Shown here: piece after piece, positions 2,821 through 31,534 of the stretch
How positions within the stretch are numbered: the stretch's first letter is position 1
Layout of the letters: each line of letters begins with the position of its first letter
Source of the DNA: Paraspadella gotoi
Taxonomy: Eukaryota > Animalia > Chaetognatha
Reading direction: 5' to 3'
DNA: 31,797 bases
Assembly (NCBI GenBank): GCA_051294375.1
Contig: JBJCIZ010001226.1
Location: 17,641-49,437, forward strand
Program-made: the position numbers and the translations under genes
The notes under the pieces: model-generated
Told to the model about the DNA's origin: nothing
The model's input: the letters and a program-made list of their open reading frames with translations, nothing else
Databases searched by the model: none

Positions 2821-3310
2821 TTATTGATAACGTAATTTTTTTTAGGTTTATAAAATTGATGCCCCCTCCATTTATATGGTCGTCGGCGAGGGGGCCACAA
2901 AGACCCCATCTTTTTAATTTTTTTTTCTCTTTTCGATTTTTTCTTTTTTTTAAATTTTTTTATTCAATTTTATTAAAGATTTTTGTACAGGTGTGGAAAA
3001 AATATTATACATTATGCATCGCAGTTTATTATTTCAACCTTTAATTAATTTTTTTCCTAATAGTTAAGCATAATTTATATTAAAAATTATAAACTTAGAT
3101 GCCGATCTTTTGTATATTTTTTGTTTTACAAAATTTTGTATTTGTTTAATTTTGTAAAATTTTGTAATTCTTACCCTGTTTACTACTCTGGTTCTGGACT
3201 AATTACGCATTTATCTTCCAATTTTATCCAGAATCTTGACGCCGAAGCACCTTTTGTCGTAATTGGCCATCCTTATTCAATTCCTTCTTCAATTGTAAAG
3301 CAAAATGGTG

Positions 3311-4515
3311 ATGATCTTCCTGCAGATGAAAGAGAGAAAAGCCACGTGGGTCTGTCCCGTCTGCGACAAATCCGCCCACTTCGTCGTTCTCGCCATAGAC
3401 GGGTCGGTTCTTTGAAGGGGGGGTGCCCATTTTCCCCCCTCTTCTCCAAAAGTATTTTACCATATTTGTTTATCCAAAGACGGGAGTTGGGATAATCTGT
3501 TTTAATGTCGTCTCACGTCGAGCGCCGCGACGACTAACGGCGGGTCCCATTTTACAAACGGAGCCGAACCGGGTAAAGAGAACTCAAAGGGACCTAATTG
3601 AGTTGCCTCGTCTGGATTTAATTTCTCTTTTTTCTCTCTAATTAGCGGCCGGAACCAAGCGAAAAGTCGTTGCTGTTGATTTGACTCTGACGACGACAAT
3701 TCCGCTTCGAGACCGCCTCCCGCCAAATGGCCCGCCCACTCCAGCAGCCAGTCATCCGTGGGTCATACCGCCACCCACTCTATCAGCCACCCTATCTCTC
3801 ACTCAATCAGCCATGCCGCCTCCCACAGCTCATCGACGCGGCTTGCAACAGGAACTTCCTCGCAAGATCAGCTCGTCAGCACCTCGACAACATCGCCGAT
3901 GCTCGCCACACCAGCAGATGCACGGGGTACCTTATCCGGTTTCCAGTCCTTGCCAGTCACCCTCACGGCCAACCAAACCGTGCAGCATTACATCCCAGGT
4001 TAATGGCCTCAATAGCCCGATATGATAACTTTTTTAATTTTATCTTTAGAAGACGTTTGATTATTATCTTAAATTTCTTTTTCTCTCTACAAAAGTTATG
4101 TCCATCGGGTACCCTTATGGATCTCCCTCGTGACTGTCCGTCGCGATATTGACCAGCGCCTTCAACATGCAAGGCGGGTTTTCCCATAAATTATGGGATT
4201 TCATCTCAAAATCCCAACTATCGAGTCTTATCGTCACACTGTGGACGTCACACTGCGTCCACAACACCCTGCAAACGTGTTTGATTATTTGAGCAGTCAA
4301 CCGTGAGTTTAGGGGGGGAAATCGTTGGTCGTGGTACCTGATTAACATTATAGTTTTACTTTATAGCAAACCAATTCATTTATGATCGTCGTTCTCACTC
4401 CAATCCATTCGGTTTCAGTCGCAGCGGAAAAGCGGTGGTGGATTTGGTGTCACAGCAAAGTCGCGGCTTTGGTGCGCCGAATTCGGCGCCGCCGGACGTC
4501 GTCACCCTGTATTGA
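3311..4515 (+). pseudogene. PIAS: PIAS/Su(var)2-10 SUMO E3 ligase, 3' half, intron-retaining and disrupted
   Basis: 3311-3402 encodes FLQMKERKATWVCPVCDKSAHFVVLAIDG (SP-RING end). DGSW at 3479-3490. In-frame intron 3573-3645. SIM-acidic motif KRKVVAVDLT/DSDDD..PPAK. C-terminus PDVVTLY* (cf. PDIISLD*) ends at 4515. Contains stops and frameshifts; N-terminal half absent. Confidence 0.88.
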
Positions 4516-4610
4516 CTATACAGACGCGGCTGCGCGACTGGTTCTCGGGAGCAGACGCCGGCTTCACCCGGCGGCGTTTATGACGGAAAGGCGACCTCGA
4601 CGATGGCCAA

Positions 4611-4658
4611 CACTTTAACGACGACACCCACTTTAACGACGACACCCACTTTGATGAC
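4611..4658. repeat. 18-bp tandem repeat (cactttaacgacgacacc, about 2.6 copies)
   Basis: Directly visible; lies in an unidentified GC-rich exon-like block. Confidence 0.9.
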
Positions 4659-4834
4659 CACGAAATAAACTACCTCGGTGCCCCAAACTACCTCATCGAC
4701 TCAAATGAAAAGAGCAACGGTGGGCGACAACGGAAATCCTCCAACAAATCCTACTCTGGCGCGCCGCTGACGACTGTCGCTTCACCGGCGAGTCCTCAAC
4801 GTCGTGCGCAACCCTGATATTGACGCCGGCCGAC

Positions 4835-4960
4835 CTGGGGCGCCGGATCTGTTGGCACAACTTTGCCTTCTTCGATCCTGTCTCCTACGAGTTCATGCGG
4901 ACCCTCGTTGTCGACATCAAGACTCCACTCTTGGGCCGCGACACTGCGGCGCTCTTCGCC
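4835..4960 (+). pseudogene. UBR5: UBR5/hyd HECT-domain fragment
   Basis: Encodes LGRRICWHNFAFFDPVSYEFMRTLV..AALFA, matching the recalled UBR5 HECT motif LGRKVNWHDFAFFDPVMYESLRQL; flanks do not continue the protein. Confidence 0.8.
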
Positions 4961-5074
4961 TTTTCATTGTTCGGAATTTCATTATGCTTTTTTTTGTTTT
5001 CTCCATCTTATCAATTATAATTCACTATTGCGACCTGGAGCTTCAAGCAATGACTTTTAATTTTGTTGTTTCAG

Positions 5075-5313
5075 TTAATGAAAAATGTTTGTGTGCAAAA
5101 AAATCACTCCTCTGAAAATGCTGCCGCAGGAAAATCCGATAGAGCAAATAATTGTGCCATCACTGGCAGAGGCGCTGAGATAAGACAAGGAGACGATGGA
5201 GCAATTGAAGAAGTCATTGGTGGATTCGTATTTGCTGGAGCTGGGCGGCGAAAATCGTTGGAGAGGGACAGATCTTCACCCGTCGAAGTCACTCGGTAGC
5301 GAGGGCATAGAAG
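5075..5313 (+). pseudogene. Unidentified exon-like fragment
   Basis: Bounded by tttcag and ag/gttggt; one frame reads KMLPQENPIEQIIVPSLAEALR*DKETMEQLKKSLVDSYLLELGG with one internal stop. Confidence 0.4.
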
Positions 5314-5926: not shown

Positions 5927-6160
5927 AAGGCGTAGTAAAATTTCTAAATTTCACTTTAATTAATGCAAATTTTCAATCAAAATTTAAAAAAGCCTATTTT
6001 GAAATTTTTCGATTTTATAAGGATAGTACTATGTATAAATAAAGCCTACTGCAAAAATTAAAAAACATAAAATTAATTTTTTTTACAAATTAATGTTCAC
6101 TGATGGTATGTTGTTCATAATTGACTTTTAGAATTTCCGTACGTAATTTTCACTACGCTC
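5927..6160 (-). mobile_element. Internally deleted copy of the 1736-2200 MITE
   Basis: Reverse complement of about 5965-6160 aligns with 1736-1929; 5927-5963 matches the opposite terminus. Confidence 0.8.
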
Positions 6161-6881
6161 TAGTACATAGTGCACAACAATACAATTTGAATTTGAGGAC
6201 AAAAATAGTCTGTTGGATGTTCGATCAGTTTAAATTTATAACATTTAACTGTTACATCGTCATCATGATTAATTTTGGACAGCAACTATGAAAATATTTT
6301 TTATGGTTTTTATTTTTATTCATGTCCTGATTTTTTCTCGACAATTTTTTTCTTATCAAATTAAAATAATATTCTTAAATTAGCTTATTCAAATGTCATT
6401 AGTTTCCGTCTAATTATATGATTTAATTAAAAAATTTATAGGAGTGGATAATTGCCTCATTTAAGATCATATCTTTGCCGTTCACACTGCTTTCGCTGAT
6501 GCTTAAATAATCACGATGGAAATAGACAACGAGCAAAATGTTTATTTTGTGGACGCATTCTTACTCTGAAACTTGTTGCGTCCACAATTTACTTATTTAC
6601 AATCGATAACGCAATGAGAGTAAAATAATTGAGTCAGAAAATCTATTGCAACCATTCGGGCCGAGGGCAGCTTCACTTCTGAAAACTAAAGTCCTTCGTC
6701 CTACTCCCTCGGCTCATGAAACAATCTCCTTTGACCTAGTCCCACTCTCCGCCCTCTGATTCGCTATGAAGCTAAAACCACGATCGAATAAACGGAGAGT
6801 GGGAGGGAGAGAGAGAGAGAGAGTTCACGTTGATCGAGTGGAGTGGAGGCGGATCCCATATCCGCTGACGATATAAAGGGA

Positions 6882-7120
6882 GTGGTCTTTTCATACAATT
6901 GAAACATTCTTTGAAATATTTTCCACTTCATTGATAGGGAAGCCAGGTACTCTGGGAGTGAATAAACGGGACTGTGAAAGTCTTGATTGAAAGCTTGCAG
7001 GGACCTGCTATGTCATTATCTTGTAAGAGTGATGGAGGCCTTAAACCACCAAAGTCAGGGGCAAGATAGCTTATTTATTAAATGAATGGATAATTTTTAT
7101 ATTGGTTGTACCAATTTCAT
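6882..7120 (+). repeat. Dispersed repeat 'X', longest copy (fixed 3' end, variable 5' truncation)
   Basis: caaagtcaggggcaagatagcttatttattaaatgaatggataatttttatattggttgtaccaatttcat recurs at 16766-16811, 21926-22017, 29130-29220 and 31392-31528; a diverged 5' part lies at 17738-17870. Confidence 0.9.
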
Positions 7121-7194
7121 TAAATAATAATCCCTTACAAATTAACTTATTGATTTACTCTTCTCTTTCCCCAACCCTCTTCCCCCACCCAAAG

Positions 7195-7710
7195 GTTAAT
7201 CAATTCTCTATCCCTCATCGCGACCCTGTCCGCTACGGCATCCTCGCGGCGCTCAAAGAGATCCTCTCCTTTTCCGTCGTCCCTTCACTCTCGCCTTTTC
7301 AAATCCAAATGTCGACGTCAAACTTCGTCAAATGATGCGGGAGAATTTCCCGAGTCCGCGATTTGACCGAAGTCTTCCTTCGTCGTCGTCGTCGTCATCT
7401 TCGCGTCGCCGAAGAGTAAGAAAAGACCAAACTGGCGCTCAAGCTACTCGTTAAGCAAACTGCTTTTTACAACCATTGTCGTTATAGGGTTTGGCGGCGG
7501 CCTCACCGCAACTACCGCCGTCGCATCCAACGGCGCCATCAACGTCTCCGCGATCCAGTGCAGCTCTGCAACGTCCAATATCGTTTGCCACTTCTCGGCT
7601 GGGGTCCATGGTCTCTAGCAATGCTGCCCCTGGCGGTTTTACTCCCGTCATTTCCATCGCGATGAGCACCGTCGTCAGGTGTTCCAACATCTCAAGGAGT
7701 TCCTTCTTTG
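7195..7710 (+). pseudogene. Two unidentified exon-like fragments separated by a 37-nt GT..AG intron
   Basis: VNQFSIPHRDPVRYGILAALKEILSFS...*CGRISRVRDLTEVF with internal stops; intron gttaag..ttatag at 7451-7487. Confidence 0.4.
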
Positions 7711-7935
7711 GTTAGGTTAATCAATTCTCCAATTACGATGAGGGACCGGGCACCATCGCTGATGTCAGAAATTACAATTCAACGCAATTCATTGCAAAAC
7801 TCCGCGGTCCTGCATTCGGAGCATTGCAAATATTACCTTGACGGAGATGCTCCGTTTTGGCATTCTTTAAAACATTTTTTTGTTGCATTTTAACCTTCAA
7901 GTAGTTAATCTTTGGAATTAGCTATAAATATTTAA

Positions 7936-10900
7936 ATGGTTTTAATTTCAGAAGCATCCATGAATGATACAGAAGTAACGAAAGATTGTTGTATTTGTCA
8001 AAAAGCCAACAATGAATCCATTTCCTGTGAATTTTGCAATTATAACTTTTTTCATCCTGTAAATGAATACCAAAGTAATGGATCTGATGAAGAATTCCAA
8101 ATTACTGACTTTAATATTGAATCTTTACTTGATAATCATATTCTTAGTTATATCTTGATAGAGCATAATTATTCCAAAAATATTCCCTCATTGATTGGTA
8201 AAAGAATTCATAAAATTTCCAATTATCATAAAGACAAACATTCCATTGAGAAAACGAATGTTACTTCTTGTTCTTTTGAAGATATTGTTGACACTATAAT
8301 AAATGATACCGAATTATCTTCTTCTAAAAAAATAGAGCGGTTCCCGCAGAAAAGTCTTTGTATTGATCCAAGTATATTTAATGAAATTAAATTGAATGCT
8401 ATTCCAAATAAAAATTTTCAATTTGTAGTCTGCCAATCTGTTTATCAACATCATTTTCGCAAATTATTAGAAGAAGTAAATAATCGTTGTATTTTTCATT
8501 CAAAAAGTTGTGTTTTCTTGAAAAAAAGTAACACGCTTAAGGCAATTTTTTATTGTGCCGCTCGAGGATGTGAATTGAAATCAGAGGTGATTGTAAACAA
8601 CCAAGGGAAAGCTAGTTTAGAATTTTATTTGAATAAAAAATATGATATTAGAAATTCGAATTCGCACATACTTGTTTCTCATAAACCTGATGTTCCAAAA
8701 TGTAATTATGTAAGACAAAATGAAAGAAAAACCTTATTTAAAGAATTAGAAAACAAAACGCCGAATCAGGTTTATGTATCAATGAAATCCAAATTAACAA
8801 GTGAACATGTTGTAGCAGGAAAGACTTCTTATAGTAAAAGGGTATGCAAAGAACTTGTTTTTGAATCGCGAAAACATATGTATCCAGACGAAAATTGTTT
8901 ATCCTCTCTTATCAAGTTAGCGAATAAAATGGATTATATTCAGAGTATTAATATTCTTCCAAATATAGAAGTAGTTTGTTTTTTGAAATCCTTTTTAAAG
9001 TTAGGAGCGCAGATGTCGTATCATTACACCATTGGAGTGGATGGGACAACTGATTTTGTTTTTGATTTTTTAGGTAAAAGGTTAGAATTATATTCATTTA
9101 CAATAAAAAATCCTATTGTAGGAAATGCTCCGATTTGCATTGCCGCAGGATTTTTATCATGTCAAAATCGTGAAGAAATTACTAGTCTTTTTCAAAAGAT
9201 TAAAAATGCTATCATTGATCATATTCCAAATTTTTGCCCACCACAGGTAGTTTGTGATAAGTCATTCGCTATTATCCGATCTCTTTTAGTTGTGTTTAAT
9301 AATGAGGATCTAACTGCTTATATCTCTAGATTATATCGAGTTGCCTATGGTTTGGAATGCAATTCGTGTAATAAAACCTTAGTTCTTTTATGTGCTCGGC
9401 ATCATTTTCAATCTATTAAAAGAGAACTTTTTAAAATAAAAGCAAATGAAGAATGTAAAAGATTTTACACAATAGTTGCTTCGTTACTTGTATCTTGTTT
9501 AAATTATTCTCATTTTAAATTTGTTTTACATCAAATGATTATTATTGGAACTAGTAAAAAGGATAATATTTATGTAAAAAGAGCTAAGTTAGAAATTAAG
9601 AATTCTTTGAAATCTATTAAGGATAAAAATTTTGAATTAGATAATGATAATCATTTTGAAAAAGAAAACCTTCAGGCCGAGTCAGATTTTGTTAGTTTTG
9701 TTCACAATAATAAAAATCCTTTAAAAGAGTCTGAATTTTATAAAGATTTTCTTGAATTAAAATGTAAAATTCAAGATTCTGACCATGAGGACTCATTTAA
9801 TAATTTGTATTGCCCAAAGTTTATTGAATATTATGGATTATTTTGGGCATCTTTTCCTGTCTATGGAAATATTTTTCGGGGTAAGTTTCGAAAACCGGAA
9901 CAAGTAGACCAACTTGACCGGTTAAGACATACGTCTGTTTTAGACAGGACTAACAATGTTTCTGAACTGCGAAATAAACTGTATAAAGATTTATTACAAA
10001 AAAAAGTTAGATTGGATGTTGCTATTATAAAGTTGGAGGAATATGATCGTTCTCTTTTTATTGAACTATCCGAAAATCTTTTATTTGAAAATATTTCATG
10101 TAGTAAAAAACGAAAACATTTTACTGGCATAAATGCACCCGAAATTTGCAGAAAAAGAAAAATGAATAAGGATTCTTCTTTGATGCTTGAAGATGTTGAC
10201 GTTGCCAATGTAGTTGATGTTTATACTTCTCATAATGATTCTGAATTAATACAGCCAGGAATGATTTGGCCTGCTTTCATGTTTACTTATCAAAATAAAG
10301 TAAATGCTTGTAGCACTATGGCCACAATTAATTTTTTTAGTAACTCTTATTCCATCAATGATATGCTTTTTCAATTTAGAATTTTAAAAAAACCGTATCC
10401 CAGTGATTTTTTTAAAAATCTTGATGAAATGTTATTGTCGGTTTATTTCAATTATTCTCAAAACAATTTATCTGTCAGAACCAATGAAGAAGTTTCAAAA
10501 CTTCACCAATCTTTTATTTCTCATCATGCTTTAGATCACATTTCTGAAAGACAGTTTACTATTGACTCATTATTTCAACTTTTGAATTCGTCTTCTTTAT
10601 CAATAAAAGATATTTATAAATGTGGGCATTGTGATTTCGAATCTGAATTCGTTACCAATCCGCCTTTTTTAACTATTGCTGCAAATCCCATCCTTTCAAT
10701 GTCAGAATGTATAAACATACAATCAAAATCAGAGCCCGTTTCAGATTTTACATGTTCCCAATGTGATTATTTAGGGATTGCTCAATTAGATCAACTTTTT
10801 ATTGATTCGCCAGTGAATTTAATTATACGTGTAGGAAGGGATCGGGATCAACGTGTAGAACAAAGTATTACTTTTTTAGGTCCAGTTGAAATTGAAATTC

Positions 10901-12576
10901 AACTTTCTTTTGGAATAAAAATTGTTGTTGATGGAAAAGAAGTAAATTATAATTTAATGAGCGGTCTTTGTTTTGCTGGTAATGACAACATGGGACATTT
11001 TTATACATTTTCTCCTATTTTAAATAAAAATCAAATTATAGTTTTTGATAATGACAATTATTTTATTCTTAAAACTGGATCTGCTGGTTTTAAAAAGGTT
11101 TCTCGTGAAATTATGTATTTAAATTATGCCAGAGCAAATGATTTGAATCAGTCGTTAATTAATAAACTAAAGTTTAAGCTGCCTCTTTTCGATATTGTGA
11201 AACGCTCCCTTTCAGAGACAGTAAGTTCAGAAAATGAATTTTTAAATAAACATTTTGGCATGTATGTCTGCAATCAGTCAATCTTGTCCAAGCAATACAA
11301 AAGTTTCATGGTTCAATTAGATGCAATTGATCGTTTATATCATCAGTCTCTTCAAGTGTGGTTTGAAGTTAAGTTTTTTTGTGTTTTTTGTTTAAAAACT
11401 TTTATTATCGGTGAAACTATTTCTCCACTTGAAATTATTCAACAATCTTTACAAAGTTGGAAAAACCAATTAAAACAAATTGGTCTTTACGGAATAACAC
11501 AACAAGGCTGCAAACATGCTATTGAAGAAGAAGATTTACAACTTCAAATTACACATTTACCCGAATATATAGTAGTGTTCAATAATTTTTTTGAAGTAAA
11601 TCGTGTTGTAACTCTTTTGAATCAATACTTGTCCAGTCTTAAAGAAATAAACCCAAACTTCAAGGACTCGAGTTATTTCATAGAAAATATTTTTATTAGT
11701 TCAAAAAATGATTTTTTCACACCTAAAAGTAATGAATTTGTAAGCGAGAACACTAGAGAAAAACTTTCAAAATCGGCCATTAGTAGTCTTAGCTCTGTAG
11801 ACAATATTTATTTTATTAAGTTAAGTCTTCCAAAGATGACTGAAATAACTGGTCTTAAACTTGCAGACAGTGAAGCATTGTTGAGCTTCAAAGCATTTGA
11901 TTTTTGGGATTCTTATAAAAGTATTGAAGAGCTGCCTTTAAATAAACTATGTATTAGCCAAACAGTTTTTATTGGGAATCTTATTCTGAGCGAAAATGAA
12001 CAAAAAGAAATTTTAGACTTGAACATTCCTCTGACAACAAAGGTGATTGATTGTTTCTTTCACAGCGTTTCAAAAGTTTTTTTTTTAGAGTTTTCGTATA
12101 TTGGGGCTTCTTCCCATAGTTTCTTGGAAAAATATTCTATACCGTCAATTGTTAATACTTTACTTAACGACTGTCATGACTTTGAACGCGTACTTTTACA
12201 TGAATCAACACAAGATATACTTATTGGAGTTGTAGAGGAAGAAAATACCAAAAGTTTGTTTTCTTACCTTTTTCACTGGGAAAAAAATGTTTTGCTTACA
12301 TATGATCCAATTTCTCCTATTCAACAATCGAAACTTAGTAAGATAGTTGATCAGATTAGGGTTTTATCTTGGCGTAAATCTAAAACCAATGAATATATTG
12401 AACATTTTGATTTAGCTTCGGCTAATCTTGTTCAAAACAAACCGAATCAAATTTTCTCAAGTACTTATATTTGTTTAGTTCCTTTCTTTTTGTTTTTAAA
12501 CAAAAATTTTAGTATGTCTGAAGAAGTAAATCGACAGTTTATTTTGCAGACAATTTTAAATGCAAATAAAAATTAA
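7936..12576 (+). CDS. Mutator (NOF/Rehavkus-like) DDE transposase fused to a USP (C19) protease, a degenerate USP-like segment and an inactive Ulp1-like domain
   Basis: Uninterrupted 1546 codons. MULE motifs: VDGT (D369), VVCDKSFA (D441), CARH (486-489), RTNNVSE (E677). Partial PHD-like CxxC..CxxC..FH and a CxxxxC Zn motif at the N-terminus. USP boxes NKVNAC (C792), GHFYT (H1021), FDND (D1038). Ulp1-like LTTKVIDCFF..YDPI..Q at the C-terminus. The true start may lie in an upstream exon (acceptor tttcag ending at 7951). Confidence 0.88.
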   Translation: MVLISEASMNDTEVTKDCCICQKANNESISCEFCNYNFFHPVNEYQSNGSDEEFQITDFNIESLLDNHILSYILIEHNYSKNIPSLIGKRIHKISNYHKDKHSIEKTNVTSCSFEDIVDTIINDTELSSSKKIERFPQKSLCIDPSIFNEIKLNAIPNKNFQFVVCQSVYQHHFRKLLEEVNNRCIFHSKSCVFLKKSNTLKAIFYCAARGCELKSEVIVNNQGKASLEFYLNKKYDIRNSNSHILVSHKPDVPKCNYVRQNERKTLFKELENKTPNQVYVSMKSKLTSEHVVAGKTSYSKRVCKELVFESRKHMYPDENCLSSLIKLANKMDYIQSINILPNIEVVCFLKSFLKLGAQMSYHYTIGVDGTTDFVFDFLGKRLELYSFTIKNPIVGNAPICIAAGFLSCQNREEITSLFQKIKNAIIDHIPNFCPPQVVCDKSFAIIRSLLVVFNNEDLTAYISRLYRVAYGLECNSCNKTLVLLCARHHFQSIKRELFKIKANEECKRFYTIVASLLVSCLNYSHFKFVLHQMIIIGTSKKDNIYVKRAKLEIKNSLKSIKDKNFELDNDNHFEKENLQAESDFVSFVHNNKNPLKESEFYKDFLELKCKIQDSDHEDSFNNLYCPKFIEYYGLFWASFPVYGNIFRGKFRKPEQVDQLDRLRHTSVLDRTNNVSELRNKLYKDLLQKKVRLDVAIIKLEEYDRSLFIELSENLLFENISCSKKRKHFTGINAPEICRKRKMNKDSSLMLEDVDVANVVDVYTSHNDSELIQPGMIWPAFMFTYQNKVNACSTMATINFFSNSYSINDMLFQFRILKKPYPSDFFKNLDEMLLSVYFNYSQNNLSVRTNEEVSKLHQSFISHHALDHISERQFTIDSLFQLLNSSSLSIKDIYKCGHCDFESEFVTNPPFLTIAANPILSMSECINIQSKSEPVSDFTCSQCDYLGIAQLDQLFIDSPVNLIIRVGRDRDQRVEQSITFLGPVEIEIQLSFGIKIVVDGKEVNYNLMSGLCFAGNDNMGHFYTFSPILNKNQIIVFDNDNYFILKTGSAGFKKVSREIMYLNYARANDLNQSLINKLKFKLPLFDIVKRSLSETVSSENEFLNKHFGMYVCNQSILSKQYKSFMVQLDAIDRLYHQSLQVWFEVKFFCVFCLKTFIIGETISPLEIIQQSLQSWKNQLKQIGLYGITQQGCKHAIEEEDLQLQITHLPEYIVVFNNFFEVNRVVTLLNQYLSSLKEINPNFKDSSYFIENIFISSKNDFFTPKSNEFVSENTREKLSKSAISSLSSVDNIYFIKLSLPKMTEITGLKLADSEALLSFKAFDFWDSYKSIEELPLNKLCISQTVFIGNLILSENEQKEILDLNIPLTTKVIDCFFHSVSKVFFLEFSYIGASSHSFLEKYSIPSIVNTLLNDCHDFERVLLHESTQDILIGVVEEENTKSLFSYLFHWEKNVLLTYDPISPIQQSKLSKIVDQIRVLSWRKSKTNEYIEHFDLASANLVQNKPNQIFSSTYICLVPFFLFLNKNFSMSEEVNRQFILQTILNANKN

Positions 12577-13206
12577 TTTTTTTTGGTTATTTTGTGTAAT
12601 TATCGTGCGTTTATTTTTTAAACATAATAATTGGTCATAAGTTAAAAAACTGCAATATACTTGTGAAGGATATAAAATATCCAAAGAATTTTGTTTTCTC
12701 TTTGTCCCTTTGACGGTCTGGACAAAATGTGTATCTTTGTTGCGTGATGTAGGGCAGTGGGACTCTTGAGTTATCTTTCATATCAAAATATACTCAATAG
12801 ACCTGCTTGCGATGTCGCTCACGCTTTTTTTTTTTCAAATGCGACAACGGGCCTTGAAAGGAACCCCTCGGGTGGCCCGGAATACCTTTCATGCTCATTT
12901 GATTTGCAACTTTAAATTAGCGTTTGGATCAATTGCGTCTCCAGAATGCTGGGGCGGTGGATGAAAAAGGCGGCAAGGACACCTTAGACTTTTGCCTGAA
13001 GAATTCAAAGAATTCATGCAGACTTTTACATCAATTTAGTAAATTTTTCAGTATTTGTCACCTGTTGGTTTTTTTTTTCCTCTTTTTATGCTCTTCAGAT
13101 ATAAAAATGCCCATAATAGATACTCAAGACCTGTGCAAAAACAGACTTTCGTCTGTTCACATATTGTAAGTCTTATGACTATACTGGGCCATACTTGTTA
13201 ACTCAA

Positions 13207-14439
13207 GCAAGACGTGGTCCTTTAAGCAAGAATAGACGCGGCCAAGTCGGCGGCAGCTCCCCTTCCGAGGACTCTAGACTGCGCCACCTCTTCCGGCGCT
13301 GGGGCGAGAGATCCAGCCGCCAGTGGGGAAGGCGACGTCGGGGATGGAATCGTCTGGAATAAAGTATTGTCTCCCTCAATGAAATCAATTACTGCAACAA
13401 TCAATATGTGTTCAAGTGAGACCTTTTTTCTTTCTGCGTCTTTCGACACCAAATATTCATGACCATTTTCCATCAAAGGATGCAAGTGGACAACCTGTTG
13501 CCCAACACCCGTTACAACTACCGATTCATCACCTTCGTCCAAAGGCCGCGGCGACTTCTCTGTGACCTACAGCCTGATAACCAAGCCGCGGCCGCCTTCA
13601 AAGTCACTCAATGCCGCCGTTAAGAAAATTCTCATCAACGAAAAACCTGCCATCATCGTGAGCGTCTTATTGCAGTTTAATCAAAAAATTCATGGATCTC
13701 ATCATCTTTTCCCCTCATCCTCATAGAATAACAGTGGCGACGTGATGGACTACTTTGTTGACACTCCATATGTTGTAGACGGCGTCGGGGCGCGACCGTG
13801 AAAGTTACGTCTCTCGCGACGCCATCAAAAAAAGAGCCAAACCCGAAACTACAATTACAACGCATCCTCGGGACATCCTCTTTCTCAATTGGACCGTGCC
13901 GGCCAAATTCATGGTTAGTTTTTTCTTCAATAACCTGACCTTTTCCGAAACGAAATAATCATCTCTCGCGTTTAAAATTAAATTAGTACATATTTACGAT
14001 TCTTCGATCTTCCATCTTTCAGACATTGGTCGCTGTGGCGGTGGAGAGCAACAATCATCAGGGTCCGAGCTGCGGAAGGACGAACCCGACGTCAGCAAGA
14101 TCGTCGCCGTCATCGTCTTCACCGTCATCCTTACCATCGCCATCATCTCCGTCGCCTTTACCAGGATGCCGACTTGCTTCGGATTGTTAAACAGGTTAAG
14201 TTAGAGAAAATTGAATTAATAAAAATTATGAGAATCAAAATTGATGTTAATTTAATTAATAATTCTAGGAAATACCACGGCACGGAATACTTCGACGCTT
14301 CCGTCGTCCAAACCCCTTCCATCGAGATCATGTCAACGATCGATTCCAACATCTAACAAGAGACCCCGTCGCCGACTTTGCCGCCTACGTGCACCGCGGC
14401 AGTGTCAACGACAATCTGGGATTCGCCGAAGATTTTTAG
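13207..14439 (+). pseudogene. Receptor-type protein tyrosine phosphatase fragment (FN3 repeats, TM helix, wedge), intron-retaining and heavily deleted
   Basis: FN3 motifs VDNLLPNTRYNYRF (from about 13486), LFLNWTVP and VAVESNNHQGPS; TM IVAVIVFTVILTIAIISVAF (14100-14159); wedge-like PVADFAAYVHRGSVNDNLGFAEDF* ending at 14439. Short GT..AG introns, frameshifts and stops. Confidence 0.8.
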
Positions 14440-14499
14440 GTGTTCAATTTAATGAATTCAGTTCATAATTTTAAATTTATTTACTCGATGCAATTTATC

Positions 14500-14700
14500 T
14501 AAATTTTTTCATTTATTTCAATTAAATAAATTTAAATTAGATTCATTCATTTAATTAATTTCATTTATTCAATTAATTTCATTTAATTGATTTATTCAAT
14601 TAATTTCATTTAATTGATTTTATTCAATTAATTTCATTTAATTCATGTCATTAAATTCATTTCATTTAATTCATTTTATTCAATTCATTTCATTTTGTTT
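14500..14700. repeat. AT-rich minisatellite of about 27 bp (taatttcatttaattgatttattcaat)
   Basis: Directly visible tandem units. Confidence 0.85.
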
Positions 14701-15777: not shown

Positions 15778-16853
15778 TAAAATTTTACAATTTAATCATT
15801 AAAAAAGTCAGTTTAGCATTTTTTTCTTTTTGGTTATGAAGTTCAAATTAGTTTGCTACAATCAGTAATTTTTTTAATGTTAGTTCAAATTCTTTTTTTC
15901 TTCTTTGCAATCATTATCTTGTTTCCTACCAATGTAATGTACTATTGTGTTTCTATTTGATTTGAAAGATAATTATAATTGTATATTTCCTTGGTGTTTT
16001 TGTGAGCTTCAAGGCCGAGTTTAAAATCGTAAAACATGATACTTAAAGCTCGACATAAATGTATAGTTAATTATTACTTATTGATTAGACCAGTAATACA
16101 CACATTTGATTTGGAACACTCGAGTTTAAAAAATCATCTCTGAAACCACTCGCCCAATTATGATTAAATTTATACACATTGATTCATTATTTTTTAATTT
16201 AAATTAAAATTATTCTTATGGAGTGTCTGGAGTTTCAAGTTATATTTAAAGTTATATTTTTTTCACATGTGTACCTTATTACATGTAGATTATACACGCA
16301 CTTGCTTAAATCAGCAGGGCGTCAACCCAAGTCCATTAAATTGCGAGAGGCGTGCGTTAGTGCGTAACGATAGGACGATGGTTTTTTTATCAGATGAAAA
16401 ATTTGTCTAAGTTTAAGTAGACCCTCTTAAAGAGAAGAAACGGACAAATAATTTTACGAGTGTGAATGATTATAAGCTAAATTCTGTTTTACCGTTTCTG
16501 ACAGTCAATAACTCATTTTTATGTCACCAATGTTCTCCTAAACTGTTTACCAAACTGAAACTCATTGTTTGTTACAATATCTGTACTGCTTATTAAACAA
16601 TCTTCGATGTGTTGTTTACTGGTTAGTGAAGGAAAAAACAGACCAAGACTGGCTAGATTTTTAGTTTTTCAAGTTCTCATAGTATAGAAAGTTCAAAGCG
16701 AGGGGTACGATATTGGATTAATTTTACTTTCGCCGACGGGGTTAATGGTTAAATTTTACCATTTTATTTATTAAATGAATGGATAATTTTTATATTGGTT
16801 ATGCCCAATTCAGAATAGTCGGTTTGTATTTCAATGCGAGTGCAGAGAATGAA

Positions 16854-17030
16854 GAGACAGTAATTATTGTTATGAGTTAGTGATAGAACCGTTCAATATA
16901 AGCAGTCCCTGAGCTTCGGATCAGGCTGTAACACCATGTTACAGGCGGGTTAAGCGCCCCGTCCCTCTAAACTGCCAGACGACCACCGGGCAAGAACCCC
17001 GGACCTTTGGGTTGGGAGGCGAATGACTTG
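16854..17030 (-). mobile_element. tRNA-derived SINE, 5'-degraded copy
   Basis: Reverse complement aligns with 28992-29129 plus 29221-29240. Confidence 0.8.
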
Positions 17031-17915: not shown

Positions 17916-18591
17916 GAACCCCTTTTTTGTGACCAGAATCTGTTCCCACCAAACTACCCGATCGAATTTAATGAAATTTTACATTTAGAGTGCTCATGAC
18001 TATATAAATGGAACTATCGAGGCGAATTTTGATGTTCAATCCCCTGACTAGAGATACAGGGCCCTGGGGGTGGACCCCTGGGGGGGCCAAAAAGTGCTAA
18101 AATTTTTTTTCATTTTTCAAATTTTTTTAGTAGCATCAAGTGCATTGATGTTTTAAACATAAGAAAAAAACATTTTAGAACTAAAATTGATAAATCTGCA
18201 ATAATTAAGCATGGTTAAAGATGCATGGTTCATCGTTTTACTTCCAATTTTCCCAAATTATTCCAAATCTGACTAACTGCTGATGTTCATGAAGCTAAAA
18301 ATTAAGGTAAATCAATATTTTTTAGGTAATAAATACGTTTTTGTGGAAGAGTAAACGTCTGTGCAACTGTTCAAAACAAAGATAATTAAAAAATTTGGAA
18401 AAAAATTTTTGACAATTTTTTGCCCCCATGGGTGACCCCCCGGGGGACCCATATCTCGGCTCAGCGGTCAAATATTAAAATTCGCCTCGATAGTTTTATT
18501 AGTATTCACATAGGGATCGTTCATTCCAAATTTCAATAAATTTGGTCCAGTAGTTTTCTCGGAACGAGTTCTGGTCACAAAAAAGGGGTAC
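17916..18591. mobile_element. MITE with long imperfect terminal inverted repeats
   Basis: ACCCCTTTTTTGTGACCAGAA at the left and TTCTGGTCACAAAAAAGGGGT at the right; inner inverted pairs aactatcgaggcgaatttt / aaaattcgcctcgatagtt and G-rich/C-rich blocks. Confidence 0.85.
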
Positions 18592-18641
18592 TATGGCAAC
18601 AGCCGGGTTGCCTGTGATGCCCATTGGGATGGGGCATCTCA

Positions 18642-18728
18642 CTGTTGGCTTTGGGGGCTTCCGACCCTCAGTGACGCCTCCAGTCACTGGCGCGGTTACC
18701 CTAGGACGGTCTCGCTTTGCCAATACAG
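18642..18728 (-). ncRNA. Type-P5 twister ribozyme candidate (copy 1); predicted cleavage U/A between 18698 and 18697
   Basis: CUGUAUUGGC(P5) AAA GCGA(P2') GA CCG(T1') UCCUAGGG(P1) UAA CCGC(P2) GC(T2) CAGUGAC..GUCACUG(P3) A GGG UCGGAAGC CCC(P4/L4) C AAA GCCAACAG(P5'). All twister elements are in permuted order; P2 has one C-A mismatch. Confidence 0.75.
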
Positions 18729-19088
18729 AGGGAAGTCGTTAGGACTGTGGATGGAACACTACGCCTGGGATGGTGTGTTCCCCCTCTGAGCCAATGTATT
18801 TGGCTGAAGGATGGTGGACGTGAGGCGGTGTGAATATACCGCCACAGGATCCCCGGGTCAAGACATCACTCAGGTTCCTCAAGCCTGAGAGGTGTCTGAC
18901 AAGACTGTTACCATAGTGGGAGAGAGAGAGCGCGAGTTGTGGGAGCAGAGGCGTTTGTCGTAGCGTACCCCAGGGGCATAGGCGTTTGTCGTAGCATACC
19001 CTGAGAAGGTTGCATGTTCGATAGTAGGGCTCACCACTTATGGCAACAGCCGGGTTGCCTGTGATGCCCATTGGGATGGGGCATCTCA

Positions 19089-19175
19089 CTGTTGGCTTTG
19101 GGGGCTTCCAACCCTCAGTGACGCCTCCAGTCACTGGCGCGGTTACCCTCGGACGGTCTCGCTTTGCCAATGCAG
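19089..19175 (-). ncRNA. Type-P5 twister ribozyme candidate (copy 2); predicted cleavage between 19145 and 19144
   Basis: Same fold; L4 reads UUGGAAGC, which keeps T1 pairing with CCG through a U-G wobble; P1 region is UCCGAGGG. Confidence 0.72.
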
Positions 19176-19389
19176 AGGGAAGTCGTTAGGACTGTGGATG
19201 GAACACTACGCCTGGGATGGTGTGTTCCCCCTCTGAGCCAATGTATTTGGCTGAAGGATTATAATATGAAGCCTTCCATATAGCCTGTCTAATGTGTAGA
19301 CCCTCTTAAACCCATAATCATGGATGTTCAATAAAACTACATGGCAACTGTAGCTTACAGTGTAGGCAGATTTATGTAATTGATAATTG

Positions 19390-21150
19390 AGCACTAAACT
19401 ATTCAACCTTTACGCTAAACTACTCAACCCAAACCCTAAACTACTCAAACCTAACCAAAACCCTAAACTACTCAACCTTAACCAAAACCCTAAACTACTC
19501 AACCAAACCCTAAACTATACCTGTCAACCAAAACCCTAAACTACTCAACCTCTAACCAAACCCTAAACTACCTTCCAAACCCTAAACATAAAACCTTAAA
19601 CTACCCCAACCCTACTAACCACCAAAACCCCTAAACTACTCAACCTAACCTACTCAACCAACCCGACAAACTATTTAACCCAAAACCCTAAACTACTCAA
19701 TCCTAATCCTACTCAACCCTAACCTAAACTACTCAACCCTTACCCTAAACTACTCAACCCTAACCCTCACCTAAACTACTCAACCCTAACCAAAACCCTA
19801 AACTACTCAACCCTAACCAAAACCCTAAACTACTCAACCCCCCACCGTAAACTACTCAACCCTAACTCGAACCCTAAACTACTCAACCCTAACCAAAATC
19901 CTAAGCTACTCAACCCAAACCAAAACTATTCAACCAAAACCTAAACTACTACCCAAAACCTAAACTACTCAATCCTAATCCTACTCAACCCTAACCCTAA
20001 ACCACTCAACCCTTACCCTAAACTACTCAACCCTAACCAAAACCCTAAACGACCCAACCCTAACCCTAAACTACTCAACCCAAACCCAAAACTATTCAAC
20101 CCAAAACCTAAACTACTCAATCCTAATCCTACTCAACCCTAACCCAAAACTACTCAACCCTAACCAAAACCCTAACCAAAACCCTAAACTACTCAACCCT
20201 AACCCAAAACTATTTAACCCAAAACCTAAAACTACTCAATCCTAATCCTACTCAACCCTAACCCTAAACTACTCAACCCTTACCCTAAACTACTCAACCC
20301 TAACCAAAACCCAAAACGACCCAACCCTACCCTAAACTACTCAACCCAAACCCTAACTACTCAACCCAAACCCTAAACTACTCAACCCCCCACCGTAAAC
20401 TACTCAACCCTAACTCGAACCCTAAACTACTCAACCCTAACCAAAATCCTAAACTACTCAACCCAAACCAAAAACTATTCAACCCAAAACCTAAACTACT
20501 CAACCCAAACCCTAAACTACTCAACTCTAACCCTAATCTACTCAACCCTAACCAAAACCCTAAACTACCCAACCCTAACCCTAAACTTCTCAACCCTAAC
20601 TGTAAACTACTCGACCCTAACCCAAACCCTAAACTACTCAACCCTAACCAAAATCCTAAACTACTCAACCCAAACATAAGACTATTCAACCCAAAACCTA
20701 AACTACTCAATCCTAATCCTACTCAACCCTAACCCTAAACTACTCAACTCTAATCCTAAACTATTCAACCCTAACCCTAAACATTAACAACACCCACTAC
20801 TCCTAACCCTAAATTGACAATAACATTAACTCTAAACTGAACTTAACCCTAAACTACTCATCCCTAACCCTAAACTACTCAACCCTAACCCTAAACTACT
20901 CAACCCTAACCGTAAACTACTCAACCCTAACCCTTACCCTAAACTCCTCAACCCAAAACTACTCAATCCTAATCTTAGTCAACCCTAACCCTAATCTCCT
21001 CAACCCTAACCCTAAACTACTCAACCCTAACCCTAAACATTAACAACACCAACCTACCCCTAACCCTAAAATTGACAATAACGTTAACTCTAAACTGAAC
21101 TTAACCCTTACTCAACCCTAAGCCACCTTAACCCTAACCCTACTCCTACT
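19390..21150. repeat. Telomere-like satellite built from CCCTAA plus an ACTACTCAA spacer
   Basis: Dozens of units of ccctaaactactcaaccctaa, with variants and longer recurring blocks. Confidence 0.95.
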
Positions 21151-21160
21151 TGTCAATTTT

Positions 21161-21305
21161 AGTTTAGTTTCGGCGAAATCGTCATAACTGGAATGCTCAA
21201 TGTAGTTAACTGCTAAATCGCCAAATGGTGAGGTCGTCTTTTGGTGATTTGGCACTCAACTCTATTAAGCATCCATGTTATGGTTATTTTGCCAAAACTA
21301 AACTT
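21161..21305. repeat. Imperfect palindrome with about 65-bp arms at the satellite polarity switch
   Basis: 21161-21225 is an imperfect reverse complement of 21239-21305; C-rich repeats lie on the left and G-rich (ttaggg) repeats on the right. Confidence 0.75.
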
Positions 21306-21477
21306 GGATTAGGGTTAAGGTTGAGGTGGTTTAGGGTTGAGTTGGTTTGGTTTGGTCGGTTTGGTTGGTCTGGTTTGGTCCCATGCAACGGGAGGAATGC
21401 CTGTGATACCCGGGGCGCGGGTTATCTCACGAGACAGACAGCGGTGAGGCAGCCTTAAGTCTTGCCACAAATTACTA

Positions 21478-21770
21478 TTTTTATGTTTGAGATAGAAAAT
21501 GTATTTTTTTAAGAGTTTTATTAAGAAACAAATTTCAGATATGATTCGTCTTTAATGTAAGCCTTCGTCAGCGCAAAAACGAATTGATTTGTGAAACAAA
21601 TATTTTCACAGACTTCGAAGTTTAAATAGAGAGTCTGTGAAAATATTTGTTTCACACATCAATTCGTTTTTGCGCTGACGAAGGCTTACATTGAAGCCGA
21701 AACATGTCCAAAATTTATGTATCTTAATAAAACTTGTAAACAAAATACATTTTCTACCTCAAACAAATAA
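21478..21770. mobile_element. Inverted pair of PLE-type hammerhead repeats (arms about 137 bp, 17-nt spacer)
   Basis: 21478-21614 is the reverse complement of 21632-21770; the left arm has a degenerate minus-strand hammerhead (GAAU in place of GAAA). Confidence 0.85.
21675..21708 (+). ncRNA. Minimal type I hammerhead ribozyme (PLE-type)
   Basis: CUGACGA-A-GGCUU(ACAUUG)AAGCC-GAAA-C-AU-G-UC; intact core and palindromic stem III. Confidence 0.82.
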
Positions 21771-21925
21771 ATGAATGGAAAAACAATATTTTTATGTTAT
21801 ATTTTTTAACGGTTAGCAATTGGATTAAGGGTGATCACTGATGTTCTCATGATCAGGGATTATGAGTAGTTAGGGATTAGGGGTAGTTAGGGTTAGGGGA
21901 TGTTTCGAAATAAAATTTGTAATAT

Positions 21926-22017
21926 AAAGCCTGTCCAAAGCCTGTCCAAAGTCAGGGGCAAGATAGCTTATTTATTAAATGAATGGATAATTTTTATATT
22001 CGTTGTACCAATTTCAT
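21926..22017 (+). repeat. Repeat X copy with an 11-bp tandem duplication at its 5' junction
   Basis: aaagcctgtcc occurs twice, followed by the shared X 3' end. Confidence 0.9.
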
Positions 22018-25000
22018 AAAGTTTTTCTACCCTTTATTAAGGGTATAAAAAAAAAGACACTCGTAAGGCCCTTACCAGTGTCTTTTTTTTTGCATAGCAG
22101 AAACGAAAAACAATTAACCGAGCGCAAAATCCCAGACTTCGAATATAAAATTAAGCCATTAATTTATCTCATTTTTATTTATGGACCTGCTGAGAATAAT
22201 ATCATTTTATGATTATTATTTTCATGTCATAACAATTTTACTTGAAGAAACCCATTGGAGAGAAAGAAGACGTCAGGATCTTGGGTTTGGGGGCGCCTTT
22301 AATGTTTATAATTGTTTCTCTGGCCAATTAGTACCATTATAAATTATATTAAATACACATATATATATGTAGCAAATTAATTTGTGGCTTATTTCAGATG
22401 AGATCGAGTTCTTCAATCTCATGCATATTCTCGTATTTTGATTAGGCTTCAATCTCATTTGCATATTGTCGTATTCTGTGATTAAGCTTTGATAAAATTT
22501 ATTCTATTGCCCTGAAGGTTTAAAATTAAGATTTTACATTGAATAATGATCATGTTTATCTTGTTATGACTAATTGACTAATGATCATGTTTATCAGTTT
22601 ATTTGCCATGTTTATTATTAAATATTCTTAGCATTTAGATATTGAAACAGAAAATAATTTGATTTGTTATTGAATGACTTTTGTTTTCCCTTTAAGGTCG
22701 AGCTTGTCTGGTTTGGTTTTGCACAGGAGGTGCTGCGGCTTCCAGCAGCAGCAGCAGCACCACATGCCCAAACCCACATGCCTAGCGTGTCTGGAGCTGC
22801 TACGCAGTGTCGTTTGTTTTACATACTCATATCTGTTGAATTGAGACTTTGAGTTGCCGACTGCCGAGTCGGTCCAACAATGGAGAAACAAAAAAGAAAC
22901 GATTCTACAGTTCTAGCATTCTAATAAGACTACACAAAAGAAATTGAATTAAAATTTATTAAATAAGTAATTACGTTGAAAATAAATTAATAATAAAATA
23001 TTAAAATTGTAATGGACCGAGACCGAATAGGTTACATGCATATTACAAAATCGTTTTGATTCCCTATGCATTTATTTTAACAGGCAAAGTCCTTTAAGTT
23101 AATCTTTTTAAATATGCAGAACTAGCAGTAGAAATTCATGGTTATTGGATTTATTAGCTTTTCAATAAACTATCATATTCATTGCTATACTTAAACTAGC
23201 TTACTATAAGTAAATTCATTGTCAATCCCGTTTCTTTTATTAAAATTATTAAAAAAATTGATAACTTTTCAGATTTAGTAGACTGAATGAGTTTGATGGT
23301 TATAAGAACACTTATGTGTTTGGTGACGATATCGAACTTAGAAGGGAACTTGTATATATTGAGTCCTGAAGCCAGCAACGTTCTAGCGTCTCTTTTTCAA
23401 CCATTTCTGTATTTCTTTCGTAGATATATCAAAGAAAAGGTCTTCATTAGGCGGGTCTGGAATAATTAAAGAAAAAGTTTGGATTACTTGCATAATATGA
23501 CTTCTTAACAAGTAATGATGTTCTAATATCTATTGTAAAATTAGGGCGAAGTAACTTTTTTTTTTTTTTTTTTTTTTATAGTTTTAACTTTGTGTTGTAT
23601 AGATGCTCCCTCTATTTCCAGAAGTAACAACACTAACATTCCCTCTCGCCATTACATTATATAAAGAATACTTTTATAAACGAATATATTAAATCATTTT
23701 TAAATTTTAATATGAAATTTTTAAATGTCTAATATAGAAACAATAATCTGTTTATTTTTCATAGTCTGGCATCTATTTTAGTTGGTATAGGTTCCTTAAA
23801 AAAATTCTGATAATCATAATGCCAAATTTTTTTTCCAATAGTAACATAATACTTCGTTAATTAATTTTACAACATTTTAGTGCTTTTTTTGACAGTTGTA
23901 ATACATCTGTACTACAGAGTGTCTCGAGCGTAGTGTCCATTTACAATGAATCAGTGAATCAGTACAATTAGAAAATAATATATTTATTTTACCGTTGGAT
24001 CCAAGAAGTTCTTCAGTTTTATATGATGAATTTTATTTTTAAATCAACTTTCATTTACATTTTATCAGCTCACGCAAATGCTGGATTTTTTTTAATCAAT
24101 ATTTAAATTTTCAAATCTTCCGACAACCAAAAAAAATTTTTTCAGGCTACTTGGTTAATATTAAGATTTAATAATATGTTATTTGGCATATGATGATCAT
24201 ATGTTTTCCTTACATATTTTTCCATATCCTTTCGGATTTGAGGAGTATTAATTGGGTACATGAGAGAATATACCGGAATGCAGTGGTTTGATTACAGCAT
24301 TGCAAATTGCATATAAGATACACTCAGTGGAAAAATAGTTTTTTAGCAGTAAAAAATATTTTATGAATTCAGATTACATGCTGATCTAGCACACTTTAAA
24401 TTTACAGCATTTATCTGTTCCTGAAACTAAATTTAACGAGCGTCATTAAACAAATTTCCTTAAAATCAATTCTTTGCATCTTCACCTATGAAATCATTAT
24501 ATTATCGTCATCTTCCCAATTTAATAAATTCTTAAGAAGGAATAAGGCAACAACAACTAATGTATGGCCTACTGTGCTTAATTAACATGCAAATCATTTT
24601 TTTAAATAAAGCAGGAAATCTTAAAATTATAACATTGGATTGTCGAAGACAAAAATCTCCTGATTTGAACGCCGCTGATGTGCAATAAAATACAAATAAA
24701 ACCATAAGATTACATATAAGCTACCGAAAAGACTGTAATGAACTTCTCTTTTCGTGACTAGTTCTTTCAAATTAATAATTCACCTGTACCAATTTGACAC
24801 AGCGTTATTTGCAAAGTTGACGTATGCTTGAAGACAATCTGTAACTTGGAAAATTTACAAGTAGTTGGAGGTCAGTTTAATTCAGACTTGGAATAATTCA
24901 ATATTCCGCATAATATTTTTCGATCGACACCGCTTGCTATCAAAAGACTTGCTATTTCTTGCCGTACTGAATACATTCATGGACATCACGATCAGTAATT

Positions 25001-28971: not shown

Positions 28972-29240
28972 GCGGCCATTGGTGCCGGAGGCAAGTCATT
29001 TGCCTCCCAACCAAAGGTCCCCGGGTTCTAGCCCGGTGGTCGCCTAGCAGTTAGGAGGGACGGCGGCTTAACCCTCCTGTACATGGTTGATAAAAATTGA
29101 TCCGCTTATATGAACGGTTCTGTCACTAAGCTTAAACCACCCAAAGCCTGTCCAAAGTCAGGACAAGATAGCTTATTTATTAAATGAATGGCTAATTTTA
29201 TATTGGTTGTACCAATTCATATAACAATATTATTGGTCTC
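28972..29240 (+). mobile_element. tRNA-Gly(CCC)-derived SINE, with repeat X inserted at 29130-29220
   Basis: Acceptor stem GCGGCCA/TGGTCGC (28972-29043), A box TGGTGCCGGAGG, anticodon loop CT-CCC-AA, B box GGTTCTAGCCC; body shared with 16854-17030. Confidence 0.8.
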
Positions 29241-31391: not shown

Positions 31392-31528
31392 AAAGCTTGC
31401 AGGGACCTGCTATGTCATTATCTTTAAGAGTGATGGAGGCTTAAACCACAAAGCCTGTCCAAAGTCAGGGCAAGATAGCTTATTTATTAAATGAATGGAT
31501 AATTTTTGTATTGGTTGTACAATTTCAT
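31392..31528 (+). repeat. Repeat X copy
   Basis: Aligns with 6990-7120. Confidence 0.9.
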
Positions 31529-31534
31529 AAGTAT

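Follow-up and report, generated by a model that had tools for sequence, protein, structure and literature searches.

A Mutator-like transposase fused to a likely active ubiquitin-specific protease and to a dead Ulp1-like domain in the chaetognath Paraspadella gotoi

We analysed a stretch of 31,797 nucleotides from the chaetognath Paraspadella gotoi (contig JBJCIZ010001226.1 of assembly GCA_051294375.1, positions 17,641 to 49,437 of the forward strand), hereafter called the window. Its sole stop-free frame longer than 250 amino acids is an open reading frame (ORF) at 7936-12576, which appears to encode in one polypeptide an intact Mutator-like cut-and-paste transposase, a likely active ubiquitin-specific protease (USP, peptidase C19), a probable dead second USP module and a dead Ulp1-like protease. 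The USP would strip ubiquitin from the DNA-bound transposase complex and so oppose its removal by the host. We assign this reading a probability of roughly 0.6. The remaining stop-free frames are all shorter than 250 amino acids, and the longest of those sit in simple repeats. Features of the protein and of its flanks are collected in Table 1.

The 1546-residue protein alone matched no Pfam family below E = 5 and gave no match in a search of PDB sequences, and all domain assignments therefore rest on relatives and on predicted models. Relatives were gathered by a full HMMER scan with residues 251-1095, which gave 130 representatives at E ≤ 0.001, and cluster look-ups added full-length members; the scan query contained the USP, which may favour USP-bearing matches. 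Six full-length proteins with 21-30% identity to the query align with it end to end, and these are referred to as the near clade.

The tail of the protein (residues 773-1546) was modelled from 13 rows, with a predicted local distance difference test (pLDDT) score of 77.2. In this model, residues 778-1068 take up the fingers-palm-thumb fold of a USP, with USP12 matching at Z 24.1 (root-mean-square deviation (rmsd) 3.0, 275 residues aligned) and a Foldseek match to USP46 at E 5.5e-14. Cellular USPs fitted the model far better (Z 19-24) than viral papain-like proteases (Z about 11). When compared with PDB sequences, a profile of the six near-clade proteins reached USP8 at E 7.6e-11, and its 37 matches at E ≤ 1 were all USPs except for four rows, which were SENP1 and SENP5. 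Language-model features pointed to PF00443 at 0.96 (184 of 256 features); they recovered the USP only, and not the Ulp1 domain that follows it. N787, C792, H1021 and D1038 fall in register with the boxes of USP8 and USP15, the two CxxC fingers are CGHC at 896-899 and CSQC at 940-943, and the motif MYLNYAR begins at 1060. An initial annotation of this DNA, made from the sequence by itself, had proposed a USP fold with an aligned triad for residues 780-1065, and the model, profile and feature matches agree in bearing this out. The residues that it had listed (D369, D441, C486-x2-H489, E677, N787, C792, the CxxC pairs, H1021, D1038 and MYLNYAR) are all found in the translation where it had placed them.

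Within the near clade, the mean pairwise identity of the USP domain is 24%, and C792, G1020-H1021, the second CxxC (C940/C943) and Y1064 are invariant in all six members. The oxyanion position is N in five members and Q in one, and the third catalytic residue reads D, N, S, S, N and S across the clade. Two features weigh against an active enzyme. The QQDAxEF-type motif, which is a USP motif, is eroded in the query and recognisable in P0145 of the alignment. The fourth critical Asp is N1039 here and reads N, G, D, M, D and N in the clade, being Asp in only 2 of the 6. Human USPs carry D, N or S at the third catalytic position, and their fourth Asp is more than 96% conserved and was essential in four of five enzymes tested, while CYLD likewise lacks it (PMC10867860). 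Because the fourth Asp is Asn, activity is only likely; on sequence and model together we consider deubiquitinase activity quite probable. The suggestion that the USP is 'apparently active' thus stands for the Cys, His and Asp, which are aligned and kept, and is weakened by a fourth position that has lost its Asp and varies in the clade.

The remainder of the tail has fared differently. Residues 1328-1546 of the predicted model match yeast Ulp1 (Z 17.2, rmsd 2.8, 197 residues aligned), and the clade profile matches SENP5 at E 5.9e-8. In the query, S1440 and about S1508 stand in the His and Cys columns, and with both residues replaced by Ser the domain is, from its sequence, dead, as initially annotated. 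The His-Asp-Cys triad is complete in P0139 and P0145, whereas P0002, P0003 and P0143 keep the His and Asp and have lost the Cys. Since C792 and H1021 are invariant in six of six members and the Ulp1 Cys is intact in two and lost in four, the USP site has been kept while the neighbouring Ulp1 site decayed.

Between these two domains lies a segment, residues 1072-1300, that is probably a dead duplicate of the USP. It aligned with the first USP module in hhalign at E 2.2e-4 (probability 45%, score 35.3; 30 column shuffles scored no higher than 15.9) and, with fewer rows, at E 0.002, where negative controls gave E 0.21 and 0.49. Helices, finger hairpin and palm strands follow in USP order in the predicted model. 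A language-model feature search with residues 1072-1310 returned no usable match, and the fold list for the tail model was taken up by the USP and Ulp1 domains and held no match for this module of its own. The initial annotation had missed this probable module, as well as a half zinc finger at residues 18-40. The latter may be a half-lost PHD- or RING-like finger; further Cys pairs are retained in the aligned relatives P0139 and P0145. A linker at residues 724-742, basic in every clade member of the alignment, is likely to act as a bipartite nuclear localisation signal, as predicted from its sequence.

The transposase was modelled as residues 137-745 from 78 rows (pLDDT 90.1, predicted template-modelling score 0.84). 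The best fold matches were ISCth4 (Z 11.5, rmsd 5.5, 238 residues aligned), Hermes (Z 10.8) and the P element (Z 10.6), and Foldseek agreed with an RNase H DDE transposase fold. D369 is Asp in 74 of the 78 rows (four gaps) and D441 in all 78; C486 is Cys in 76 (two gaps) and H489 is His in 74 (three gaps, one N), while E677 is Glu in 53, with 23 gaps, one D and one K. Among rows that reach them, the DDE and CxxH residues are thus almost invariant, beyond what chance would give.

Assigning the core to a superfamily was less direct. The RNase H core with its helical insertion and a CxxH after the second Asp is common to hAT and P and is not diagnostic alone, and by predicted fold the call is tied between IS256/MULE (Mutator-like element), hAT and P, which counts against a Mutator assignment; ISCth4 is presumably a member of IS256, the prokaryotic relatives of MULEs. 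A profile of the transposase retrieved no transposase from PDB sequences. An N-terminal zinc finger of the WRKY/GCM1 type is a feature of the MULE/Mutator superfamily, and the predicted finger of the query (residues 176-250) matched AtWRKY2 in Foldseek (probability 1.00, TMt 0.67, E 0.04), with middling fold scores (AtWRKY1 Z 5.9, AFT2 Z 6.0). Its C207 and C212 are Cys in 51 of 78 rows with 27 gaps, and H249 is His in 62. The Pfam MULE family (PF10551) was matched weakly, below its cut-off (E 0.001-0.006), by 3 of the 130 representatives and one cluster member, and not by the query protein. The two Asp residues D369 and D441 are 72 residues apart, inside the 60-76 range of MULEs (PMC13359780). 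The finger, this spacing and the weak Pfam matches favour the Mutator side, and sequence and model together support an intact MULE-related DDE transposase, in line with the initial annotation.

The fusion is not confined to this locus. Pfam UCH was matched at E ≤ 0.01 by 9 of the 130 representatives, six of them at or above the curated cut-off, and the other passengers found by Pfam were C48 in four, PHD in five and YqaJ in one. In P0010 the transposase is followed by UCH (E 2.7e-19) and then by C48 (E 1.3e-11), as in the query, P0161 carries PHD, UCH and C48, and P0146 has an N-terminal OTU in place of the USP. Named distant relatives come from a sea cucumber, a fish and a psyllid, which suggests that the family is at least largely animal; several of these bear PHD fingers, and distant relatives show canonical USP boxes. 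Most matches are fragments, and the USP Cys box was therefore counted in the 42 relatives that reach the core end and continue for at least 140 residues beyond it, with a pattern that had been widened after the near clade was inspected (shuffle rate 0.9%). The box was found by pattern in 15 of the 42 and by eye in two more. The 27 without a box by pattern, which include those two and of which many are probably cut short, suggest that transposition may not need the USP, a point that weighs against the proposed role. That the fusion is so widely shared in the family indicates that the USP cassette was inherited from the element family and not newly captured at this locus. The rarity of such a fusion, on which the initial annotation had placed weight, is weakened by this distribution and by the C19-transposase fusion already in print for an IS5-like element (PMC2836005).

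A quick tree was built from 77 cores of 157 core-matching proteins, leaving out near-duplicates and cores with less than 75% coverage. It grouped seven near-clade rows with support 99, and it placed P0011 and P0098, which have USP Cys boxes, outside a 32-row group (support 94) that contains the remaining USP-bearing rows; single and repeated capture of the USP both fit this tree. The scans brought up no orthologue above about 38%. Word-based homologue searches returned 0 of 7300 candidates with the whole protein, and 1 of 4456 and 2 of 7994 with a core profile. None of 210 pattern matches to related loci in metagenome contigs was confirmed, nor any of 45 in viral contigs. Separately, P0081 carries the YqaJ nuclease, and P0007 and P0145 are extended at the N-terminus by a long additional region. 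Some nearly identical relatives differ in that one is whole and the other is broken in two within the USP region (P0005+P0140 against P0139, and P0006+P0141 against P0143); the split forms may be broken copies or assembly errors.

Table 1. Features of the fusion protein and of its unique flanks in the window.
Feature	Positions	Strand	Basis
Transposase-USP-probable pseudo-USP-dead Ulp1 fusion, single ORF, 1546 aa	7936..12576	+	ORF listing, translation
Degenerate Cys-rich finger, aa 18-40, CxxC...CxxC...H	7987..8055	+	alignments
WRKY/GCM1-like zinc finger, predicted DNA-binding, aa ~160-255; C207, C212, H249	8413..8700	+	fold match, conservation
Predicted RNase H-like DDE core with helical insertion; D369 (9040), D441 (9256), CxxH (9391-9402), E677 (9964)	8953..10095	+	model, fold search, conservation
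Basic linker, aa 724-742	10105..10161	+	sequence, alignment
USP domain, aa 778-1068; N787, C792 (10309), two CxxC, H1021 (10996), D1038 (11047), N1039	10267..11139	+	structure, profile, language-model features
Probable second USP module, aa 1072-1300: finger hairpin, LPxxxxxF strand, palm strands; no Cys/His box	11149..11835	+	hhalign, predicted secondary structure
Ulp1/SENP (C48) fold, aa 1328-1546; His column S1440, Cys column about S1508, D1457 kept	11917..12573	+	structure, profile
Unique upstream flank, GC-rich exon-like blocks, 38-nt GT..AG gap at 7450-7487, no terminal inverted repeat	7121..7935	+	composition, repeat scan
Unique downstream flank, GC-rich exon-like blocks, no partner inverted repeat or target-site duplication	12577..14570	.	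composition, repeat scan

The state of this copy was judged from its flanks and from assembled contigs of sequencing runs. The initial annotation had suggested recent activity or domestication and a search for terminal inverted repeats (TIRs) and 9-bp target-site duplications (TSDs), and neither was found between the unique flanks. The best local inverted match between them scores 25, which was reached by 16% of 200 shuffles, and none of 16 9-bp direct-repeat pairs has matching termini (best 6 of 15). The element ends may lie further out among repeats, and non-TIR MULEs exist (PMC6446971). In run X1, which may be the run behind the window, a single unbranched contig of 4341 bp covers 8776-13116 with 0 differences at depth 78; other unique pieces of that run have depths of 71-101, and repeats outside 7121-14570 reach hundreds of thousands. 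Contig depth is not copy number, and the pattern fits a single copy; no extra whole copies of the ORF were seen among contigs of the runs examined. Without inverted ends or a target duplication, and with this single-copy look, recent mobility is unsupported, and all of these points weigh against the reading of a working element. Lacking recognisable ends, the copy is probably no longer self-mobile; the protein it encodes might still work on related ends at other sites.

Other samples carry nearly the same sequence, with one difference over 1300 letters and one over about 1000. The sole variant-bearing tract, 8427-8775, falls in the predicted DNA-binding finger and shows 29 differences in 409 letters at greater depth, with the contigs of three runs breaking at both its edges; it may represent a divergent allele, a conversion tract or a paralogue. 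In run X9, taken by guess to be RNA, two contigs break off directly behind AG acceptors (4419 and 7488), their remainders being unplaced, and the second enters the ORF, which is a weak hint of splicing and transcription. Depth differences of X5 and X9 along the ORF, and a gap in X5 beyond about 12400, are properties of contig depth and were not taken as expression; X9 reaches a similar depth over presumed non-coding DNA.

The surroundings of the ORF, initially described as decayed, carry GC-rich exon-like blocks with short intron-like gaps, and the scarcity of long ORFs there may therefore reflect introns. The ORF is intronless and AT-rich, with a GC content at third codon positions of 0.20, beside these GC-rich flanks. 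Its second ATG (M9) lies at 7960, shortly 3' of a TTTCAG at 7946-7951. A contig of run X5 begins at 7952 with five loose letters attached. In 7200-7935, a short frame upstream of the transposase stays open for about 80 codons when the 38-nt gap is excised. Blocks at 3300-5250 and 13200-14400 are likewise GC-rich and exon-like, with short intron-like gaps and acceptors of the TTTCAG type, which are nematode-like; Pfam gave no match for the frames tried in these two blocks. Related copies about 90% alike exist for 3658-3999.

Elsewhere the window is rich in repeats. An inverted pair at 1736-1933 and 5962-6160 (84-92% alike, 4 kb apart) resembles a high-copy miniature inverted-repeat transposable element; considered as possible element ends, the pair was rejected because it belongs to a high-copy family and does not bracket the ORF as its ends. 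The repeats D12 and I18-I21 were set aside as ends for the same reasons. Very high-copy repeats, at depths thousands of times the unique level, occupy 6857-7120, 16775-17030, 18428-19260, 21946-22020, 29151-29225 and 31458-31532. One such family stops sharply at 7120 with A-rich loose ends, and tRNA and Rfam scans of these repeats gave no match. An AT-rich array lies at 14507-14695 and has no TIR after it. At 19394-21038, degenerate telomere-like units (AACCCTA, spaced by ACTACTC) form an array of 1.6 kb, and 21161-21772 holds nested hairpins and a short reversed copy of that array. Rfam, tRNA and Pfam scans of the remaining window gave no match.

We propose that the fusion would bring the USP wherever the transposase binds DNA. 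There it would clear the DNA-bound transposase complex of ubiquitin and so keep the host from degrading or extracting it, and the dead modules would serve as scaffold or ubiquitin-binding parts. A role in transposase protection has been proposed for the deubiquitinases of Helitrons (PMC9741609). That USP, OTU and Ulp1 are swapped on one backbone, with USP often paired with Ulp1, suggests a general need to reverse ubiquitin and SUMO tags. That the USP acts in cis, on the transposase or on its direct partners in chromatin and repair, is a tentative choice that we place just short of even odds. A USP tethered to a predicted DNA-binding domain, in a family where 5 of 130 relatives carry PHD fingers, could alternatively be aimed, not at the transposase itself, but at host chromatin or repair factors at donor and target sites, for example H2A-ubiquitin or PCNA-ubiquitin, and would then lift silencing or steer repair; a DNA-repair role has been suggested for transposon proteases (PMC2836005). 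With half of the finger lost in the query copy, we regard this as unlikely. The Cys box is non-canonical, the fourth residue varies, motifs are eroded and the other two modules are already dead, all of which would suit a clade USP with weak deubiquitinase activity or none, acting as a ubiquitin-binding pseudo-enzyme or as a self-cleaving protease that frees the transposase from its tail. The fold is common to viral papain-like proteases, and viral USP-fold proteases process polyproteins. However, the Cys, the His and the oxyanion Asn or Gln are kept in six of six deep branches, cellular USPs match far better than the viral enzymes, and distant relatives show canonical USP boxes, which makes such a function improbable.

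The locus itself raises the question of domestication, in which a host gene would encode a sequence-specific, DNA-tethered deubiquitinase and the DDE residues would be kept for structure or for a host rearrangement. The unique flanks without TIR or TSD, the unbranched contig at the depth of its neighbours, the near-identity among samples and the spliced-looking contig that runs from the upstream flank into the ORF, a weak hint, would all agree with this. Nevertheless, the full DDE and CxxH are retained, the ORF is intronless and AT-rich beside exon-like flanks, no close orthologue was found, and low polymorphism with an intact frame would equally fit a fairly young insertion; we judge domestication rather unlikely, and the AT-rich intronless frame with its full DDE leans towards a stranded element. 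A wider proposal combines several of these elements: a widespread, undescribed animal Mutator-like lineage whose arm of USP and SUMO protease, with a pseudo-USP as spacer, would undo both steps of SUMO-targeted ubiquitination on the transposition complex, the present copy being a host-tamed, DNA-tethered deubiquitinase. We consider this doubtful as a whole; if true, the two-enzyme arm would give these elements a means of their own to counter silencing by the host and the removal of their protein.

The repeated capture of ubiquitin and SUMO proteases by DNA transposons has been a question since at least 2010 (PMC2836005), and their role in transposition has only been proposed (PMC2836005, PMC9741609). 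The question becomes directly testable in this family because one backbone offers swaps (USP, OTU, Ulp1 or none) and natural Ulp1 knock-outs.

NOF belongs to the Rehavkus/NOF-FB group, which stands in or beside the MULEs, and the transposase described here is putatively of this type; the PHD fingers of 5 among the 130 representatives would fit it, and no Rehavkus or NOF reference sequence stood among the matches gathered here. Rehavkus elements of animals encode long transposases in a single ORF, and these have a MULE-like DDE and PHD fingers (PMC6446971, Table 1 and text). They have TIRs of 26-400 bp, a 9-bp TSD and a minisatellite before the 3' TIR, whereas the query copy has neither TIR nor TSD and only half a finger; the text and three supplements of PMC6446971 list PHD and minisatellite and no protease, while the query family carries proteases. 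Mutator elements of plants, Hydra and lancelet join a MULE transposase to a C-terminal C48 protease (PMC2836005); the query differs in having a USP and a probable pseudo-USP between transposase and Ulp1, and in that its Ulp1 is dead. A single Trichomonas vaginalis protein, XP_001314237.1 (transposase_11 and peptidase C19), was mentioned in passing in 2010 as joining a DDE transposase to a USP-type protease; its superfamily is IS5-like (PMC2836005). Ginger1 carries OTU or Ulp1 and Helitrons carry OTU (PMC2836005), and the VTD domains of Helitrons have been studied as deubiquitinases (PMC9741609); these too are ubiquitin-like deconjugases on transposons, of other transposon classes and protease families. 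Compared with cellular USPs (USP12/46, USP2, USP30 and USP8), the query shares the fold over about 275 residues with its catalytic residues aligned at 11-17% identity, and differs in the Asn at the fourth Asp and in the fusion to a transposase. Literature searches on transposons and these proteases turned up no USP on a Mutator or Rehavkus transposase; reports in Repbase, subscription journals, supplements on bioRxiv and two FASTA supplements lay outside them and may contain one. The USP-transposase fusion is therefore apparently undescribed for the Mutator superfamily and a variant of a known theme; it adds USP to the list of Mutator passengers, and the USP itself is a very divergent one that lacks the Asp usual at the fourth position.

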